DNA of 64,000 nucleotides from an uncultured delta proteobacterium. Lineage in GTDB: Bacteria > Desulfobacterota > Desulfomonilia > UBA1062. This document shows positions 7,905 to 57,373 of this stretch, in pieces (the first letter of the stretch is position 1; each line of letters opens with the position of its first letter). The notes beneath the pieces were generated by a model. That model did no database searches and was not told where the DNA came from. It saw nothing but the letters and a program-made list of their open reading frames with translations. The stretch covers positions 192,001 to 256,000 of the forward strand of contig CAWCTR010000014.1 of NCBI GenBank assembly GCA_963798485.1, given 5' to 3'. The translations under genes and the position numbers were made by a program.

Positions 7905-7971
7905 TTGGACACCTCCATGGAATATTCCCTTGGAGTCTCCACCCAGGCACGCAGGTGTAGTCCGGACCACG

Positions 7972-8110
7972 GATAGGTCTTCTGGCTTACGGATCATTAT
8001 GGCGGCCTTGCCTTCCCGCATTTGCAGTGGCATTTTAGCGGCCTGCCCTCCCCGTTCACAGCGGCGGCCCCACCCCGGAATTTCACCGGGTTCCCTTGAA
8101 TCCGCAGCAG
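7972..8110 (-). ncRNA. Cobalamin riboswitch
   Basis: Minus strand AAGGGAAcccGGTGaAAtTCCggg...GCCGCTGTGA...GCCACTG...GGGAAGGC...AGCCAGAAGACCT (B12 box); P1 TGCGGAT/ATCCGTA. Confidence 0.93.
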
Positions 8111-8159
8111 GGTTTGCAATAAATATCAGGTGGTATATGAACTGTCAATATGGCGTTTA

Positions 8160-47568: not shown

Positions 47569-48537
47569 TCAATTGGGGGCATGTCTTTTCAAGAACGCCA
47601 TCTTCTTTTCATTTATCTCTGCTGCAACATCTGACAGGGCCAGGATATGAAATCCTCCTTCCACGATATGGATCTCGGCATTGGGTATCGATCCGGCTGC
47701 ATTTTGTGCATGATTAAGGGGTACGTCAAGATCATCGGTCCCATGGATTACCAATGCAGGGACGGCTACGTGTTCAAAGGGAAGGTTTTCTACCTTTATA
47801 AGCTGCCTCATATCGTTGTTCAGGCCCTTTGTCCGTAGTCTTGGAGGACTCATGCTCCTGATCAGGTCCATAAGTATCTTAAGGCGCTGCTCGTCTTTCA
47901 TGATTGCCCTCATGAGATTCATCACCTCCTCCTCACCTAGAGAGCTTTCCATCTCGGCCGTGGCCCAACCCACAAGCATTGGGGCATGATGCGCAATGAC
48001 ATCCGCCAGCCAGAGGGAAGGCCCGTTGAACATGAGGTGCCCGAAAAAGATGTTTTCACCAATGTTGTTATGATTTATCTCATATCTTTGGCTGACAGCG
48101 GATTCGAGGATTAATGCCCAGACCCGTTCAGGATAACGTGCGGCAAAATGGAGTGCAGAGGGGCCGCCTGCTGAATATGCAATGATTGCAGATCGATCTA
48201 TACCAAGTGCATCGAGAAGGGAGACAAAGGCATCGGCCTGCTCCTCAAATGTCCTTCCACTGTTCAAGGGGGTGCGGATATAACCCGGACGTGACCAGCT
48301 CAGTATGCGGTACCCCTTCCCGAACAGGTCGCTGAAAAGTGCCTCGGTCTGGTCATACCCGCCCGGCGCACCATGCATAACGGCAACAAAGGGGCCGCTT
48401 TCCCCATGGATGGTATATTCTATAAGTCCTTTATCGGTTTCAATCACCGTGCTGCCGGCTTTGAGCTCGGCAACGAGGTCTCTCTTCCAGCGGATATACG
48501 GACCATATTTTTCCCTTGCCCTTCTCAAGATGTTCAT
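47569..48537 (-). CDS. Alpha/beta hydrolase (paralog A)
   Basis: MHG.PGGYDQ, SRPGY, YSAGG, HGTDD.DVP, GFH. Confidence 0.88.
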   Translation of the reverse strand: MNILRRAREKYGPYIRWKRDLVAELKAGSTVIETDKGLIEYTIHGESGPFVAVMHGAPGGYDQTEALFSDLFGKGYRILSWSRPGYIRTPLNSGRTFEEQADAFVSLLDALGIDRSAIIAYSAGGPSALHFAARYPERVWALILESAVSQRYEINHNNIGENIFFGHLMFNGPSLWLADVIAHHAPMLVGWATAEMESSLGEEEVMNLMRAIMKDEQRLKILMDLIRSMSPPRLRTKGLNNDMRQLIKVENLPFEHVAVPALVIHGTDDLDVPLNHAQNAAGSIPNAEIHIVEGGFHILALSDVAAEINEKKMAFLKRHAPN

Positions 48538-48624
48538 GCCCCGATTATACCACTTTCAAGCAGGAAAAGAGAAATATCATTATCATATAACCTTTTCAAA
48601 ACATCCATGCAGGCAACCGGGGTA

Positions 48625-48654
48625 TTGACAGACACGTGGAAAGTGCTCTATAGA
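48625..48654 (+). promoter_or_regulatory. Putative sigma70 promoter for riboswitch 1 operon
   Basis: TTGACA at 48625, TATAGA 18 bp downstream. Confidence 0.45.
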
Positions 48655-48668
48655 GCATCCATAATTCC

Positions 48669-48716
48669 GGGGAAGGAGTCCCCCCTGTAACCGCCAGGCA
48701 GGCTGATGACTCCTAT
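48669..48716 (+). ncRNA. Fluoride riboswitch (crcB motif), copy 1
   Basis: GGGGAAGGAGTCCCC...AACCGCC..GGCTGATGACTCCTA; pseudoknot GGAGT/ACTCC; GAAGG in place of the usual GATGG. Confidence 0.82.
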
Positions 48717-48739
48717 CAGAGCAATCTGAAGGAGCGTAT

Positions 48740-50404
48740 ATGGAGTTTGTATCTAAAAGCCTACCCATCTCAGACACCAAGGAATTGGTCGGCAGGGTCA
48801 ACAAAGCAGCCTCCCGGTTTCACATCGTTTCCCTGAACCGCCAGATCGAAGTCTGCGAAAGCCTCCTCAAGGAAAACCCGCTTATCGATGTGGCCATACT
48901 CGGCCAGTTCAAGGCGGGCAAGAGCTCGTTCATCAACAGCCTTGTGGACCGGGAAATACTCCCAGTCGGAGTCATCCCGGTCACCACGGTGATCACCCGT
49001 CTTCAATACGGCCCGCAAGAACGCTCGGTGATCACATATATCGATGGTACAAGGTCTGAGATAGGTATCGAAGAGCTGGGGAAGTTCATTTCCGAGGCAC
49101 AGAACCCATCAAATTCCAAGAACGTCGATATCGTGGACATAGAGTTGCCTGCACTCGAAGCTTATCCCGGGCTCCGTCTGGTGGATACCCCGGGGCTGGG
49201 AAGCGTGTTCAAGTATCACAAGGAGGTGTCCGAGAACTGGCTCCCCGAGGTCGGGGCTGCCGTCCTTGCCATCAGTTCCGACCGCCCGCTCTCCGAGCAT
49301 GATCTCAATCTTATCGCAGACCTCTCCCATCATACCCCCATGATCGTCATCCTCCTCACCAAGGCCGACCTTTTGACCCCGGATCAGCAGAATGAGGTGG
49401 TGCAATTCTTCCAGCAGACATTAAAGCGGAAGCTGAACCGTGAGTATCCCATATTCCCCTATTCAACCCGATCCGGGATGGAATTCTTCAAGCACCGGAT
49501 CGAGTCGGAGCTCCTTTCCGGCTTGTCCAAGAACCGGGATCAGGAGTTTAACCGCATACTCAACTACAAAACCCAGTCACTGCTCAAAAGTTGTCTAACC
49601 TATCTCAATATCGCCATGAAGACTTCTGTCGAGGCCGATCAGGACCGGGAGGCGCTCCGCTCTCAGATCCTGAATGAAAAGGTCGGCTATGATCAGATCA
49701 GGGAAGAGATCGGCGTCATTACAAGAGAATGCCAGAGGCAGACCCGGGCCCTCCTGACGAATCATCTTGAAAAATTCAAGGATCCCCTCACGGAGAAGCT
49801 CAAGGCCGAGCTGTCCGGAGAGATGCCTTCCTGGAAAGGAAACCTGTGGAGGCTGACCAGAAGGTATGAAGCATGGGTGACCGAAACCATGGAAGAAGAG
49901 ATACGGCATATCTCCAAGACGGAAAACCATCACTTCTACGGCACCCTGAACAAGGCACATAACAGCCTCACCCGGTACCTTGAAACCTTCAGGATGCTGC
50001 TCAATGACAATATTGACAAGGTGCTGGGAATAAAGCTTGCGGAGGCGGACTGGAAGATCGAGTTGACAGAGCCTGATAATCCCGACATCGGGGTTCTCTA
50101 CACCTTTGATTTCAAATTCGATCTCCTCTGGTTCCTCATCCCCATGTTTATTTTCAGGAGGTTTTTTGAACAACATTATCTGGGAGAGATCCCCTGGGCG
50201 ACGGAGGTGAATATCTCCCGGCTCATTACCCAGTGGGAAACCAGGATCAACAAGGCCATCGACGAAATGCGCAAACAGGCGGAAGGCTATATCAAGGATG
50301 AGATATCCACGATCGATGCCCTATTGTCATCACAGGGACAGGAAAAGACCCATGAGCTTTATGAACTGATTTCAGAACTTCAGGGATTTGTAGTCAATGT
50401 TTGA
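48740..50404 (+). CDS. Bacterial dynamin-like GTPase
   Basis: G1 GQFKAGKSS, G2 PVT, G3 DTPGLG, G4 TKAD; helical stalk with hydrophobic LLWFLIPMFIF segment. Confidence 0.85.
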   Translation: MEFVSKSLPISDTKELVGRVNKAASRFHIVSLNRQIEVCESLLKENPLIDVAILGQFKAGKSSFINSLVDREILPVGVIPVTTVITRLQYGPQERSVITYIDGTRSEIGIEELGKFISEAQNPSNSKNVDIVDIELPALEAYPGLRLVDTPGLGSVFKYHKEVSENWLPEVGAAVLAISSDRPLSEHDLNLIADLSHHTPMIVILLTKADLLTPDQQNEVVQFFQQTLKRKLNREYPIFPYSTRSGMEFFKHRIESELLSGLSKNRDQEFNRILNYKTQSLLKSCLTYLNIAMKTSVEADQDREALRSQILNEKVGYDQIREEIGVITRECQRQTRALLTNHLEKFKDPLTEKLKAELSGEMPSWKGNLWRLTRRYEAWVTETMEEEIRHISKTENHHFYGTLNKAHNSLTRYLETFRMLLNDNIDKVLGIKLAEADWKIELTEPDNPDIGVLYTFDFKFDLLWFLIPMFIFRRFFEQHYLGEIPWATEVNISRLITQWETRINKAIDEMRKQAEGYIKDEISTIDALLSSQGQEKTHELYELISELQGFVVNV

Positions 50405-50450
50405 ACACCCTTACCCGGCATAGGCAAAAAACATCAAGACGGAGGATTCC

Positions 50451-51650
50451 ATGGAACTATCTTTTACTATCGCGACCCTGTGGGTCGGCCTAGCGGTCAT
50501 TGCAACCATTATTGCTTATCACATCCGCATCTCAATGGCCCTGGTCGAAATCTGTGTCGGTATGGTGGCAGGGGCGTTATGGGAACACTACTTCGGCAAG
50601 GAACTGCTGGGAGCAAACGTTGATTGGCTGCGCTTTCTCGCTTCCACGGGGGCCATTCTCCTGACCTTTCTGGCAGGCGCAGAACTGGACCCTGAGGTCA
50701 TCGGCTCGAAATGGAAAGAGGTTACCATTGTCGGGCTTATCGGCTTTCTAGCCCCTTTTTTAGGGTGTACCGCGCTTGCCCGCTATGCCCTGGGATGGAC
50801 CCCTTCAGCAAGCCTTCTTGCAGGAGTAGCCCTCTCGACCACGTCCATGGCGGTGGTCTATGCAGTGATGATCGAGACCGGCTTCAACAATACCGAGTTT
50901 GGCAAAGGGATCCTCGGCGCATGCTTTATAAATGACCTCGGAACCGTCATCGCCTTGGGACTCATCTTTGCCCCCTTCTCCTATAAGACCTTCATCTTTA
51001 TCGGGGTAACCGCTGCCGCGATTGCGTTGCTTCCGTTTATATCCAAGCGCATCACACGGAAATACGGACATCGGACAGCCGCCATCAGGGCCAAGTGGAT
51101 ACTGTTCGTTCTGTTCGGTCTCGGAGCGCTGGCGGTGTGGTCCGGCAGCGAAGCGGTATTGCCTGCCTACCTGGTAGGGATAGTGCTGGCCGAATTCGCC
51201 GGTAACGATCACTTATGGGTGAGGAGGATGCGAACCCTCACCATAGGATTTCTGACCCCGTTCTATTTTATCCGGGCAGGCTCCCTGGTTTCGCTTCCTG
51301 CCATCATGACTGCACCGCTGATCTTCATTCTCCTTCTGGCCGGGAAGGTTGTCAGTAAGATATTCGGACTCTATCCCGTGATCGGCTTTTTCAGAAAGGA
51401 AACCAATGAGCGCTGGTATTACACCCTGATGATGTCGACCGGGCTCACCTTCGGCACCATATCGTCACTCTATGGCTTCACCCATGGGATCATCACGCGC
51501 GGGCAGTATTCCTTTCTGGTTGCCGGTGTCATCGCAAGCGCCGTTATCCCCACGATAATCGCCAACCTTGCATTCATCCCCTATTCCCTCCTGCCCGACC
51601 GGCCCGAGCCTACGGTTGAAGAGGTGGAAGATGGCCTTGGGGATGAGTGA
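50451..51650 (+). CDS. Cation:proton antiporter (Na_H_Exchanger family)
   Basis: About 12 TM helices, FLAGAELD, LSTTS.AVV, FINDLG, PFYF..AG. Confidence 0.85.
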   Translation: MELSFTIATLWVGLAVIATIIAYHIRISMALVEICVGMVAGALWEHYFGKELLGANVDWLRFLASTGAILLTFLAGAELDPEVIGSKWKEVTIVGLIGFLAPFLGCTALARYALGWTPSASLLAGVALSTTSMAVVYAVMIETGFNNTEFGKGILGACFINDLGTVIALGLIFAPFSYKTFIFIGVTAAAIALLPFISKRITRKYGHRTAAIRAKWILFVLFGLGALAVWSGSEAVLPAYLVGIVLAEFAGNDHLWVRRMRTLTIGFLTPFYFIRAGSLVSLPAIMTAPLIFILLLAGKVVSKIFGLYPVIGFFRKETNERWYYTLMMSTGLTFGTISSLYGFTHGIITRGQYSFLVAGVIASAVIPTIIANLAFIPYSLLPDRPEPTVEEVEDGLGDE

Positions 51651-51902
51651 GATGAGTGATAGGAGAGAAAATGGGTTTCAGCTTGTTCCCTACACGTTGT
51701 GGAAACTATCATAGTTAAACAAGCATAATGGGGGCGGCATGGCATGTTCTGGAAAGGTTGGCAACATGTGAAGGGAGGCAAAGCATGACAGAAAAGACGG
51801 CCGTATCTCGTGAGGCTGTGCTCGATGTTCGCAAGCTGGACAATCCCTCCCGTTCGTGATTGACAGCTTTACCCTTAATACAGTACACATTTAACGAAGA
51901 TC

Positions 51903-51947
51903 GGGGATGGAGTCCCCCATAATTGCCGGGCAGGCTGATGACTCCTG
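51903..51947 (+). ncRNA. Fluoride riboswitch (crcB motif), copy 2
   Basis: GGGGATGGAGTCCCCCATAATTGCCGGGCAGGCTGATGACTCCT; TTGACA at 51860 upstream. Confidence 0.88.
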
Positions 51948-51971
51948 TCAGAGAAATCTGAAGGAGAAGGT

Positions 51972-52162
51972 ATGGAGCTTGCCCTCAAATGTCATCCGGC
52001 TTCAGGTATTATACAATTCCCCTCAAGAACACAGTTATCATTCGTTCAATGCGTGCAAAGGCACGCTCAAAGGCGGCTTCGCCGTATGACCAGTAGTTCA
52101 CCATTATTACAGCCGTTGTTCATGTTCCTCAGATTACCAGCTGACTACAAAAAGGAGGCACT

Positions 52163-52166
<4 letters not shown>
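51972..52166 (+). pseudogene. Probable remnant of a dynamin-like paralog 5' end
   Basis: Same riboswitch/RBS context as 48740; MELALKCHPAS resembles MEFVSKSLPIS, then similarity stops. Confidence 0.4.
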
Positions 52167-52979
<813 letters not shown>

Positions 52980-53054: not shown

Positions 53055-53735
53055 TTATTGATCTTGGTTCATTTCAGGCCCGGTGGAAAATTTGACCCTG
53101 TAATCTTTCACCGCTCCCTGTTTGAATCTCTCGAATGTCTGCTCCACCTCTGCGCTGTAATCAATTCCGGATTCATATGTGCAAACCTTGATGCTGTTAT
53201 CCTTTATGAGCAGGCAATACTTTGCGGCGGATAAATCGGCTTTAAGCTTTTTCGTTTCAGCTAAAAGGGACGTAAAATGGCCGGATTCGGCATAGTTCGT
53301 TATATACTCGCGTAAGGCTAAAAAGCCTCGCGATTTTAAATCTGCAAGGGTTAACTCATGTACCAGGCGATGAACGGCTTCACAATAAATATCTATTGTT
53401 TCTAAAAACCATCCTTCCTTGTGGTATTTGTACTGAAGCTTTTCCACAAGGGCAAGATGCTGTCGCATTGTGCGCATTTCTTGTGCAAATGTTTTTATAT
53501 TCTCAAAGAGAATTTTATTTTCCAGGTCCTGCATTATTTCATGACGATACTTGATCGTGTCGATATCGGATAGGGAAGTGTAAAAAAACGGCTTTAGATT
53601 ATATTCCTGCCTGTGGGCCGTGATGGTATCGATAACCTGATCAAGATTCAAATCAACAAAAAAGGCGGGCGCTTCAAGCGATTCTTTTTTTGTGCCCTCT
53701 TCAGTTCTTTCAAATAATATGCTGTGGAAAGTCAT
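53055..53735 (-). pseudogene. 3'-truncated MutS-related protein (ATPase domain missing)
   Basis: MTFHSILF...PAFF.DLNLDQ...I.YRHEI.QDLE N-terminus of the short MutS-related family; ends after about 226 aa with no P-loop. Confidence 0.7.
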
Positions 53736-53793
53736 GAGACAAACACCTCCTGGGCCATGATGCGGACGCACCACTTCAACTCTACCGCCGCAT

Positions 53794-53845
53794 GGTAGGA
53801 GTTATCAGCCCGGCCCGGGCGTTTGTCAGGGGAACTCCATCCCTT
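53794..53845 (-). ncRNA. Fluoride riboswitch (crcB motif), copy 3
   Basis: Minus strand AAGGGATGGAGTTCCCCTGACAAACGCCCGGGCCGGGCTGATAACTCCTACC. Confidence 0.88.
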
Positions 53846-54113
53846 TGTAAGGGTCAAATGATAGGAATTTCTAGAAGTACAGTCAAGCTGGAAAACCGCA
53901 AAAATGCAGCGTGCACCAATACAGGGGTTGGCGTCGACAAACCGGACGTGTCGATATACCTGGGCTCCACATCTTGCTACGCTTAGCCCATCATGGCGGA
54001 TGAACCAAACGTCTAATCTTTCCGGGTTCATATAATGAATGAAATCATTAGAAAAATTTAATTCGTTTCTAATCTTCTTTTAATCATAATGCTGTATTGT
54101 AATCTTACCAAGA

Positions 54114-55651: not shown

Positions 55652-57373
55652 GTGAGTAGAGATTATCTGAATTTGATACGTTCCTTGTTAAGGGGTCTGC
55701 CGGAAAATACCCGCACCCTCATACTCACTATTATTTATGGTGTTATAGCCGGGTCGGCGGCAGTATGCTTCATGACCCTTCTTAACCTGGTTTATGAAAA
55801 TACCTTCATTGTCTTCTCCTCTCATTCCAAACTCTTCTTCCTGATTGCAAGTTTTATCTTGGTCGTGAGCACCTCACTCATGGCAGGTTTCCTGCTTTTT
55901 AAATTCGACCCGGATGCGGCAGGGAGTGGCATTCCACAGCTCAAGGCTGCTTATTGGAAAGAAGTAGGCTATGTGCCGTGGCGTCCGGTTCTCATCAAGT
56001 TTATAGCCGGCGTACTCAATATCGGCGGAGGCGCCAGCCTGGGCCGTGAGGGGCCCACCGTTTATATCGGCGGTGGTATAGCCTCAAATCTTGCAGGGTT
56101 CATGGGGGTTCCCATACGGAGGCGGCGAAGCGCGGTTGTTATCGGTGCATCTGCCGGATTGGCCGCTGCCTTTAATGCACCTCTTGCTGCCATAACATTC
56201 ATCCTCGAAGAGTTTGTCAGCGATATCGATAACCGTTTTATCGGCCGCGTCGTACTCTCTTCCCTGCTCGGGGCATTTGTCGTATACGCCTTTATAGGCA
56301 GGCAGCCGGCTTTCAAACTCCCATCCATCGAATCCGTATCCTGGTCGCACTACACGATTGTCCCTGTAGTCGCCGTCTTTGCCGCTCTTGCCGGCGTCAT
56401 CTTTCAGCAGGCAACGCTCTCCATAAGGTACCGTCTTAAGAGGCAGAAGGCAGTTCCTGCCTGGCTTTTACCCTGTTTCGGAGGACTCATTGTATGGGTC
56501 ATCGGCTCCGCCGTCTTTTGTACTACCGGAAAGCTCGGGGTCTTCAGCCTCGGGTATCATGATCTCTCAAGCGCCTTGGATAATAATTTTATCTGGTGGG
56601 TTGCAGGAATCATGGTGGTTGCCAAGCTGCTGGCGACTATATTGTCCTATAGTTTCGGAGGATGCGGGGGAATCTTTTCACCTCTGCTCTTCATCGGCGG
56701 TATGTGCGGGTATTTCATCGGAGGCCTCACCGGTCATTGGATCCCGGTAACACCGTCCGATAGAGTCGTTCTTTCAGCGGTCGGTATGAGCACCTGCCTT
56801 GGAGTGGTCGTCAGGGCGCCCCTCACCTCTTTATTGATTGTTTTTGAAATGACACACCAGTTCGACCTCATCCCGGGATTGATGATCGGCACTTTCATCG
56901 GCGTCATCATCTCTCATGCCTTCGGCAAAGAGAATTTCTATGATGCGTCGCTGCTTCAAGACGGGCATGAGCTTATAAAGATCAGACCGCCCTTGGACAT
57001 AAAGGGCTGGCAAAACCTCCCCATTTCCTCAATTGCCAATCCACACCCGATTGTCGTGGATAATCTTGATGAAAGCCATCTTCAGCCCATACTTGATAAC
57101 CACCCATACAATTGTTTCCCTATCCTTTTAGAAAATAATGAGGTCGGTGTTATAACCCGGGATCACATGGAGTCCATTATTGCCCATAAGACAGTACCGG
57201 AAATTCCCAAAGCCGTATTCTGTCACCCGGATCAGACTGTCAAGGATGTCGGCAATAAATTTATAGAATCGCCAAGCGGCGTCATCATTGTCATAGACGA
57301 AAAAACAGGAGACATAACCGGTATTGTAACCCTCCATGATCTTCTCCGCGCACAGGCTTCTATTTTAGGTTAA
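55652..57373 (+). CDS. ClC chloride channel/antiporter with CBS domains
   Basis: GSGIP, GREGP, GGIFSP, FY motifs; C-terminal CBS pair. Confidence 0.92.
   Translation: MSRDYLNLIRSLLRGLPENTRTLILTIIYGVIAGSAAVCFMTLLNLVYENTFIVFSSHSKLFFLIASFILVVSTSLMAGFLLFKFDPDAAGSGIPQLKAAYWKEVGYVPWRPVLIKFIAGVLNIGGGASLGREGPTVYIGGGIASNLAGFMGVPIRRRRSAVVIGASAGLAAAFNAPLAAITFILEEFVSDIDNRFIGRVVLSSLLGAFVVYAFIGRQPAFKLPSIESVSWSHYTIVPVVAVFAALAGVIFQQATLSIRYRLKRQKAVPAWLLPCFGGLIVWVIGSAVFCTTGKLGVFSLGYHDLSSALDNNFIWWVAGIMVVAKLLATILSYSFGGCGGIFSPLLFIGGMCGYFIGGLTGHWIPVTPSDRVVLSAVGMSTCLGVVVRAPLTSLLIVFEMTHQFDLIPGLMIGTFIGVIISHAFGKENFYDASLLQDGHELIKIRPPLDIKGWQNLPISSIANPHPIVVDNLDESHLQPILDNHPYNCFPILLENNEVGVITRDHMESIIAHKTVPEIPKAVFCHPDQTVKDVGNKFIESPSGVIIVIDEKTGDITGIVTLHDLLRAQASILG

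Follow-up and report, generated by a model that had tools for sequence, protein, structure and literature searches.

Why would a bacterium place a dynamin-like GTPase under the control of an RNA that senses fluoride? The question is raised by a DNA stretch of 64,000 nucleotides (the window) from an uncultured delta proteobacterium (Desulfobacterota; Desulfomonilia; UBA1062), covering positions 192,001 to 256,000 of contig CAWCTR010000014.1 in assembly GCA_963798485.1. Here, a fluoride riboswitch stands directly before the gene of a dynamin-like GTPase (DLP), and a cation/proton antiporter gene follows. Positions given below are those of the window. A survey of related loci showed the DLP family to be a conserved and widespread member of the predicted fluoride regulon. 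We examined how the riboswitch may control the DLP gene, how far this arrangement is conserved, what the two proteins are likely to do, and which other explanations deserve weight.

The riboswitch is predicted to sequester the ribosome-binding site of the DLP gene

An Rfam search identified the fluoride riboswitch aptamer (RF01734) at 48660-48722 of the plus strand. The match covered the full model (1-64 of 64) and scored 47.1 bits, above the gathering cut-off of 34, with an E-value of 6.2e-10. The aptamer was able to form helix P1 (5' arm GGGG, 48669-48672), helix P2 (GCC 48693-48695 with GGC 48701-48703) and the pseudoknot (GGAGU 48675-48679 with ACUCC 48709-48713), all on the plus strand. 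The Rfam match ends 17 nt before the ATG of the DLP gene (48740), and the last conserved CUCCUA lies 25 nt before it.

The expression platform (48710-48734, plus strand) is a 10-bp hairpin composed of CUCCU.UCAGA (48710-48720), the loop GCAA and UCUGAAGGAG (48725-48734). When the platform was folded in isolation, the CUCCU.UCAGA hairpin was its minimum-free-energy fold (-12.0 kcal/mol). The 3' arm of the hairpin contains the Shine–Dalgarno (SD) sequence AGGAG (48730-48734), 5 nt 5' of the AUG. As its 5' arm, the hairpin uses the pseudoknot's 3' strand, which doubles as the anti-SD sequence CUCCU. Therefore, the ligand-locked pseudoknot and the SD-hiding hairpin are mutually exclusive. No U-tract was found 3' of the platform hairpin (48710-48734), so the platform was read as a translational ON switch, and this design fits the sequence and the predicted fold of 48660-48734.

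A sequence-only reading of this DNA had proposed a crcB-class aptamer before the DLP start codon, a hairpin that hides the SD sequence, a translational ON switch, and an intact DLP gene of 554 codons followed after 46 bp by an intact antiporter gene. The Rfam match, the fold and the profile scores reported here bear out the aptamer, the hairpin and the two genes and are compatible with the ON switch, and the gene coordinates were right.

The relatives described below keep the platform hairpin on the same CUCC strand, and its inner stem varies among them. In many of them, a U-run directly 5' of the AUG would turn the hairpin into a terminator that holds the SD sequence as well, and others have a two-hairpin design. 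Across these relatives, the platform logic is conserved, with varied implementation.

A promoter-like element (TTGACA, an 18-nt spacer and TATAGA; 48625-48654, plus strand) was recognized by eye and ends about 6 nt 5' of the aptamer match. It is weak evidence for a promoter, and it failed the rule of the consensus scan, the last base of its -10 hexamer being A. The scan of 48450-52200 returned 6 promoter-like sites against 2.9 expected. No plus-strand terminator was detected after the DLP or the antiporter gene in the same interval.

The riboswitch–DLP link recurs across several phyla

To collect DLP loci, we scanned one genome per species. From the 148 encoding stretches that this gave, the best 80 loci were taken forward. 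Rfam was run on the first 17 of them, and a same-strand fluoride aptamer was found upstream of the DLP gene in 17 of 17. A covariance model of our own was then built from 27 aptamers (24 from these 17 loci and 3 from the window) and run on all 80 loci, giving 96 matches. In the alignment of the 27 aptamers, 95.2% of the cells in the paired positions were paired, a value reached by none of 500 shuffles, and 18 cells carried changes on both sides of a pair.

Two of the 80 loci start inside the gene, leaving 78, all from species other than that of the window, that could be evaluated. In 63 of these, the aptamer lay 16-105 nt before the estimated DLP start (one match was weak, at 30 bits). Seven loci had the aptamer 752-2261 nt upstream with same-strand genes in between, namely enolase, CrcB with DUF190, or CLC-F. 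The other eight had no upstream aptamer in the fetched sequence. For one of these, L077, the aptamer was located just beyond the fetched flank, heading a unit that runs from an antiporter gene to the DLP gene; this locus was moved to the distal group, which then numbered 8. Two more of the eight (L063 and L074) had a second DLP copy behind a switch. In all, the link was present in 73 of the 78 evaluable loci. The idea that it might be peculiar to this genome, on which the sequence-only reading would have fallen, is thereby dismissed.

The loci came from organisms labelled in their records as Desulfobacterota, Planctomycetota, Goldiibacteriota, Bacteroidales, Elusimicrobia and Verrucomicrobiota, and from a cultured Syntrophomonas. 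Within the order to which the window belongs (52 genomes), 16 genomes encode the DLP. The switch adjoins the gene in 15 of them, and in the remaining one a contig end interrupts the locus. For 10 of these DLP genomes, the DLP switch was the only fluoride riboswitch found. A riboswitch that occurs one to three times per genome, yet this often before one gene family, is not placed there by chance. We hold the regulatory and comparative parts of this analysis with high confidence.

Two other RNA matches were seen close to DLP loci. In L005, an nhaA-I RNA (RF03057; 3740-3785, minus strand; 45 bits against a cut-off of 37) lies divergently beside the DLP fluoride riboswitch, so that two ion-related RNA motifs stand back to back. 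In L013, a group II intron domain (RF02001) matched at 18-186 of the minus strand with 113 bits.

The GTPase has the features of the dynamin-like proteins of bacteria

The DLP (P0001, 48740-50404, plus strand) has 554 amino acids and matched Dynamin_N with 85.4 bits (cut-off 27). Its G1 (GQFKAGKS), G3 (DTPG) and G4 (TKAD) motifs are present and were invariant in 15 relatives. The genome contains no second clear Dynamin_N gene. Comparison of a family profile with the PDB retrieved the Campylobacter jejuni DLP (1.8e-17), BDLP (6e-16) and IniA (1.5e-15).

The 3D structure was modeled using AlphaFold 2, with a mean predicted local distance difference test score of 77.8. The model consists of a GTPase domain followed by long helices (residues 248-552). 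These are interrupted by a low-confidence loop and then a conserved aromatic and hydrophobic stretch at about 430-475, with a putative tip at about 455-475. The helical stalk and the tip of the dynamin superfamily were both recognizable in this predicted structure. Foldseek searches with the model ranked IniA (6j72) first (E 6.3e-19), followed by BDLP and the C. jejuni DLP, all as full-length matches. The template modeling scores (TM-scores) were 0.31-0.37 at an identity of 15-16%, and such low TM-scores are as expected for hinged proteins.

The DLP gene and the antiporter gene are both intact. The ratio of nonsynonymous to synonymous substitution rates (dN/dS) of the DLP gene was 0.15 and 0.13 against two relatives, and that of the antiporter gene was 0.09 and 0.08, indicating purifying selection on each. 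The DLP family is large. With E<=1e-30 as the limit, 1793 representatives at 50% identity were counted, and among 8000 candidates scored, 1591 were relatives with E<=0.001. Full-length relatives named 'dynamin family protein' occur in Desulfomonilia and Syntrophales bins.

The closest structural match, IniA of Mycobacterium, is a single-chain bacterial DLP of similar size that is made under chemical stress (it is isoniazid-inducible). IniA reportedly has membrane fission activity. The two proteins differ in sequence (16% identity, TM-score 0.33) and in their control, since IniA belongs to the iniBAC operon with protein regulators responding to cell-wall drugs, whereas the window DLP would be governed by a fluoride signal read by RNA. 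The layout of a Dynamin_N GTPase with a helical stalk behind it, ending in a tip that binds membranes, is common to the window DLP and to BDLP of Nostoc punctiforme, the DLP1/DLP2 pair of C. jejuni, LeoA and SynDLP (profile E-values of 1.8e-17 to 6e-16, plus fold matches). The other proteins are without a known inducing ligand and several act as pairs; in contrast, the window DLP is a single gene per genome with predicted control by a defined chemical signal.

DLP genes usually lead their units and have no fixed partner

To survey the neighbours of the DLP gene, 634 open reading frames (ORFs) from the 80 loci and the window were clustered by BLAST and named by Pfam. Among the neighbours, enolase was the commonest with 20 loci; the antiporter and a HIT protein followed with 13 loci each, the window being counted in both cases. 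A small AAA_16/STAND-like ATPase of about 220-235 amino acids was found beside the DLP in 12 loci (for example, L006 5520-6221), and a prenyltransferase-like protein of about 300 amino acids in 6. Others were MFS transporters (6 and 4 loci), DUF6062 (4), CrcB (3) and DUF190 (3), and a His_Phos_1 (phosphoglycerate-mutase-like) protein was also recurrent. A search for DUF6062 gave no match in the window genome, nor in the control genomes.

In 34 of the 63 loci with a proximal switch, a same-strand gene followed within 300 nt of the DLP gene with no switch between, and enolase was the commonest such gene (10 of the 34). In the remaining loci, the next gene was on the opposite strand (13), the sequence ended too soon (7), the gap exceeded 300 nt (6), a second switch intervened (2), or no ORF was called (1). 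The DLP gene thus seems usually to lead its unit, often alone, and to have no fixed partner.

In relatives, His_Phos_1 and GGGtGRT-family genes were also observed in fluoride-switch units (L010 5654-6361; L041 6648-7646; L117 10368-11360). Neither family appears in the riboswitch cargo list in the available text of a review (PMC11139923).

The antiporter family is linked to the riboswitch in its own right

The antiporter gene (P0002, 50451-51650, plus strand) is separated from the DLP gene by a 46-bp spacer (50405-50450, plus strand), which holds the antiporter's own SD sequence, GGAGG (50441-50445), and neither an aptamer nor a terminator-like site. The protein has 399 amino acids without a regulatory C-terminal domain. 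It matched the Na_H_Exchanger family (PF00999) with 108.6 bits (cut-off 26.2) over profile positions 3-369 of 375. It scored 103.2 bits against NCBIfam TIGR00932 (CPA2), below the cut-off of 238.3; it was therefore considered a divergent member and called CPA2-like.

An N-D pair in the central helix was kept in 12 of 13 antiporter orthologues, and the remaining one had T-D. This pair, which we take to be the cation-site signature of cation/proton antiporters, would argue against the antiporter being an anion exporter. Nothing points to the third class of fluoride exporter that the sequence-only reading had offered as one possibility.

Among 301 sampled genomes of the phylum, 49 had an antiporter match at E<=1e-50, and the best 29 loci outside the window genome were examined. 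A same-strand aptamer was present within about 160 nt in 24 of them and at about 430-490 nt in 2; 3 had none. With 26 of these 29 loci carrying the switch, the antiporter family is a dedicated member of the fluoride regulon in its own right. In the available text of the review, Na+/H+ antiporters rank as the commonest fluoride-riboswitch cargo after exporters, with which our count agrees, and they are interpreted there as serving pH homeostasis (PMC11139923). Fluoride-riboswitch control of such antiporters, which the sequence-only reading had mentioned, is thus already published.

A tblastn search of the 80 DLP loci placed an antiporter homologue in 16, and for 11 of these 16 homologues a separate aptamer lay directly upstream. 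Because the homologue accompanies the DLP in so few loci, the two genes do not form a fixed module. Of the proposed fluoride-response module of DLP and antiporter, then, the link between switch and DLP recurs, and the pairing of the two genes does not.

Known fluoride exporters are rare in the whole order

The window genome is a draft assembly that is 97.5% complete with 6.96% contamination. No CRCB match was found in this 97.5% complete genome, and a CRCB gene occurred in 2 of the 52 genomes of the order. The only CLC gene in the genome (55652-57373) lies within the window and has no riboswitch. It encodes a 573-amino-acid protein with a CBS domain and the motifs GSGIP and GREGP. It matched ClcA at about 1e-39 to 1e-40 and gave no match to CLC-F chains at E<=1e-10. 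The CLC under riboswitch control in L079, taken as a positive control, matched only CLC-F chains (2.8e-62). The window CLC was accordingly rejected as a CLC-F candidate. When the CLC-F of L079 was used as the query, the order yielded only proteins of 28-36% identity (ORFs of 449-656 amino acids), and the genus of the window yielded no match. The earlier observation that the window holds no Fluc or CLC-F gene therefore stands, and it extends to the genome as far as a 97.5% complete assembly shows.

In the order, 28 of the 52 genomes had no fluoride riboswitch match at E<=0.001; 32 had none over the cut-off and 20 had one over it. Side by side, CRCB was present in 2 of these genomes and a clear CLC-F in none, yet a fluoride riboswitch scored over the cut-off in 20. 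The lack of known exporters seems to be a trait of the whole order and not of the DLP carriers.

In other phyla, the DLP gene was found in the same riboswitch operon as exporter genes, with CrcB and DUF190 in L064 and L071 and with CLC-F in L079. Since the DLP shares operons with CrcB or CLC-F there, it would add to export and not replace it. The DLP family and the two exporters, Fluc (CrcB) and CLC-F, thus have the regulon in common, and in other phyla the operon. They differ in that neither exporter was found in the window genome and that the DLP is homologous to neither.

A possible new branch of the fluoride response

Fluoride-riboswitch (RF01734) operons contain crcB/Fluc, eriC-F/CLC-F, Na+/H+ antiporters, enolase and pyrophosphatase, according to the available text of the review (PMC11139923). 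A dynamin-like GTPase is absent from its gene list, and neither 'dynamin' nor 'GTP' occurs in that text (PMC11139923). Judged by titles and the starts of abstracts, no publication on a dynamin or other GTPase controlled by a fluoride riboswitch was found; such a gene may be listed in the supplementary tables of Baker et al. 2012. The window shares with the known operons the aptamer class, the helices, the pseudoknot and an ON logic that works on the 3' strand of the pseudoknot, together with antiporter, enolase and MutS-like cargo. It differs in having a dynamin-like GTPase as the first gene, an A at an otherwise invariant T of the aptamer, and no exporter gene found in the genome. The riboswitch and the antiporter are therefore of known kinds, and fluoride control of the DLP would be a well-supported, apparently unpublished extension of the regulon.

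Although bacterial DLPs are widespread, the trigger or the cellular task is known for few of them; in the present case, an entire clade appears to be tied to one defined chemical signal through an RNA sensor whose specificity is known. The link offers a direct experimental handle, as fluoride can be added and the response of the protein followed. It would add a membrane-remodelling branch to a fluoride response whose described parts are export, the balance of pH and ions, and the overproduction of enzymes (available text of PMC11139923). How fluoride is dealt with in lineages that have neither Fluc nor CLC-F becomes a further question.

Proposed mechanism and alternative explanations

We consider it fairly probable that the fluoride riboswitch is a translational ON switch for the DLP, with a co-transcribed antiporter gene behind it. 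Without fluoride, the 3' strand of the pseudoknot (CUCCU) would pair with the SD sequence (AGGAG) in the 10-bp hairpin, and the DLP would not be translated. With fluoride, a Mg-fluoride cluster would lock the GGAGU/ACUCC pseudoknot, the anti-SD sequence would be held in the aptamer, and the freed SD sequence would allow the DLP to be made. These steps are proposed because of the sequence, the fold and the comparison with relatives. The antiporter gene, having its own SD sequence, would most likely follow the DLP gene through polarity or through the stability or decay of untranslated mRNA. As the fold and the family suggest, the DLP might perform GTP-driven membrane remodelling or repair of the IniA/BDLP type when fluoride stress damages or loads the membrane. 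An IniA-like, stress-induced role of this kind is the one that we tentatively favour for the modeled protein. The antiporter may correct the cation and pH imbalance that arises from the influx of hydrogen fluoride, in keeping with the published view of such antiporters.

Several points weigh against this proposal. The function of the DLP in fluoride stress is deduced from a model, and the membrane-repair role from fold likeness at 15-16% identity and TM-scores of 0.31-0.37. The companions of the DLP vary, so that the partners give no single functional hint, and the calls of these neighbours were crude longest ORFs, some of them wrong-strand shadows. Five of the 78 evaluable loci had no switch within the fetched flanks, and 63 of the 80 loci were scored only by our own covariance model. 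The two riboswitch units that adjoin the DLP unit have been damaged by deletions. Finally, the window aptamer reads GAAGG and not GATGG, a caveat of the sequence-only reading that proved correct and more serious than claimed. A48674 was the only non-T at its column among 99 aptamer matches (96 from related loci and 3 from the window); it replaces a T kept by 98 of the 99 and breaks the invariant ligand-site stretch G-A-U-G-G. By position, in our own mapping of the motif to the numbering of the solved aptamer, A48674 would correspond to U7. In the available text on that structure, U7 is one of five ligand-site nucleotides whose phosphates hold three Mg2+ around fluoride, and its base stacks on G39 (10.1101/2022.05.19.492696). 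The window aptamer with A48674 may hence bind fluoride poorly. Reads were of no help in deciding whether the base is real. A sequencing-run search for the window strain gave 17 DNA runs, the best with 0.34 of the sampled words, and no RNA run was among those listed. When contigs of 4 runs were aligned to 48500-49100, no same-strain contig spanned 48563-48688, and the contig of a relative aligned only from 48669 on, so A48674 was neither confirmed nor refuted.

If the U-to-A change weakened or abolished fluoride binding, the switch would be crippled in this genome, and the DLP–antiporter unit would be either leaky or locked off with a hidden SD sequence, as one element in a wider decay of the lineage's fluoride island. 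The singular base within the five-nucleotide ligand-binding domain speaks for this, as do the loss of most cargo from the two adjoining riboswitch units in comparison with a sister genome (G034) and the score of the window aptamer, 47.1 bits against 53.6 in the close relative L004. That relative (88% identical) has T at the deviant column and an otherwise near-identical aptamer. However, fluoride and Mg2+ contact the phosphates and not the base, according to the same partial source (10.1101/2022.05.19.492696); U7 being engaged through its backbone, a base change at A48674 may be tolerated. The near-invariance of the column says otherwise as far as the aligned aptamers go, and the available text of a preprint on high-throughput riboswitch work (PMC12667848) contains nothing on the equivalent nucleotide. 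The window copy retains every other invariant aptamer column, with both helices and the pseudoknot intact. Both ORFs are intact with low dN/dS, although dN/dS covers a longer time than one point change, and A48674 could be an assembly error in a metagenome-assembled genome. A crippled switch is, in our judgment, unlikely. A quite different reason for the DLP to be in the regulon would be an effect of fluoride on GTPases, such that extra protein offsets inhibition by metal-fluoride, or that a GDP-metal-fluoride state is the signal that locks the DLP on the membrane. In the presence of GDP and aluminium fluoride, the G domains of dynamin form dimers, and the GTPase motifs of the DLP are intact. 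Its commonest partners, enolase (20 loci) and the His_Phos_1 phosphoglycerate-mutase-like gene, are fluoride-sensitive phosphoryl-transfer enzymes or glycolysis neighbours, and making more of the target is the logic given for enolase and pyrophosphatase in the available text of the review (PMC11139923). Simple compensation fits poorly, as the genome contains no further clear dynamin gene for the DLP to stand in for, and such complexes would have to form on the DLP at physiological fluoride; we regard this explanation as highly improbable. Little credence is also given to the antiporter, alone or aided by the DLP, as a route of fluoride export or tolerance that replaces Fluc and CLC-F in a lineage without both. 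In its favour are the absence of CRCB from the genome and from all but 2 of the 52 genomes of the order, the ClcA-like nature of the sole CLC, the failure of a true CLC-F query to match within the genus (28-36% identity in the order), the retention of fluoride riboswitches by the genus despite no CrcB or CLC-F being found, and the tight tie between antiporter family and switch (26 of 29 loci). Against it stand the N-D pair of 12 of the 13 orthologues, a cation-binding signature of cation/proton antiporters, and the reading as pH homeostasis in the text available from the review (PMC11139923). Moreover, with 28 of the 52 genomes lacking a riboswitch match at E<=0.001 and 50 lacking CrcB, the absence of exporters is an order trait, and absence in draft genomes is no proof. 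Lastly, the DLP family might be a dedicated fluoride-stress effector with its own mechanism, either through assembly triggered or locked by GDP-Mg-fluoride or, together with the CPA2-like antiporter, through a tolerance without Fluc and CLC-F in lineages like this genus. We think this quite unlikely.

Two further riboswitch units adjoin the DLP unit

The sequence-only reading had not mentioned two more fluoride riboswitches at 51894-51954 (plus strand) and 53789-53853 (minus strand), nor the canonical CLC gene at 55652-57373. Riboswitch 2 (51894-51954) was a full-length Rfam match with 48.5 bits. It heads a 64-amino-acid ORF, a HIT-family gene (52163-52630) and a C-terminal enolase remnant (52704-52979; the last 91-128 codons). 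A full enolase gene is located elsewhere on the contig. Over 82 nt, the segment 51901-51981 matches 48667-48749 with 83% identity, a likeness confined to the aptamer, the platform and the start codon; riboswitch 2 is a partial copy of riboswitch 1. The 64-amino-acid ORF was considered as a DLP fragment and rejected: it has no similarity to the DLP, and only the leader and the start codon were duplicated.

Riboswitch 3 (53789-53853, minus strand) was also a full-length match, with 45.1 bits. It heads a truncated gene of the MutS-domain-V family (53055-53735, minus strand), of which only the N-terminal 226 amino acids remain; the counterpart in L043 has 519 amino acids. MutS-like genes are among the known cargo of fluoride riboswitches.

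The sister genome G034 has the same unit of switch, DLP and antiporter, with a DLP that is 90% identical. It additionally contains a GGGtGRT-like gene, a HIT gene and a full enolase gene (429 amino acids) at the site of the riboswitch-2 remnant, and two MutS-like genes, the first of which is split by an IS1595-family transposase. In comparison with G034, the window lacks about 1.0 kb from the enolase gene; another stretch of about 2.6 kb, which would complete MutS-like gene A and hold the whole of gene B, is missing too. The DLP–antiporter pair is the part of the fluoride island that was kept whole in both genomes.

Rfam detected four RNAs in the window, the three fluoride riboswitches, which lie within 5.2 kb, and one distant cobalamin riboswitch. 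The three RF01734 copies are the only ones in the entire 4.3-Mb assembly. The cobalamin riboswitch (RF00174) is located at 7955-8120 of the minus strand and scored 87.5 bits.

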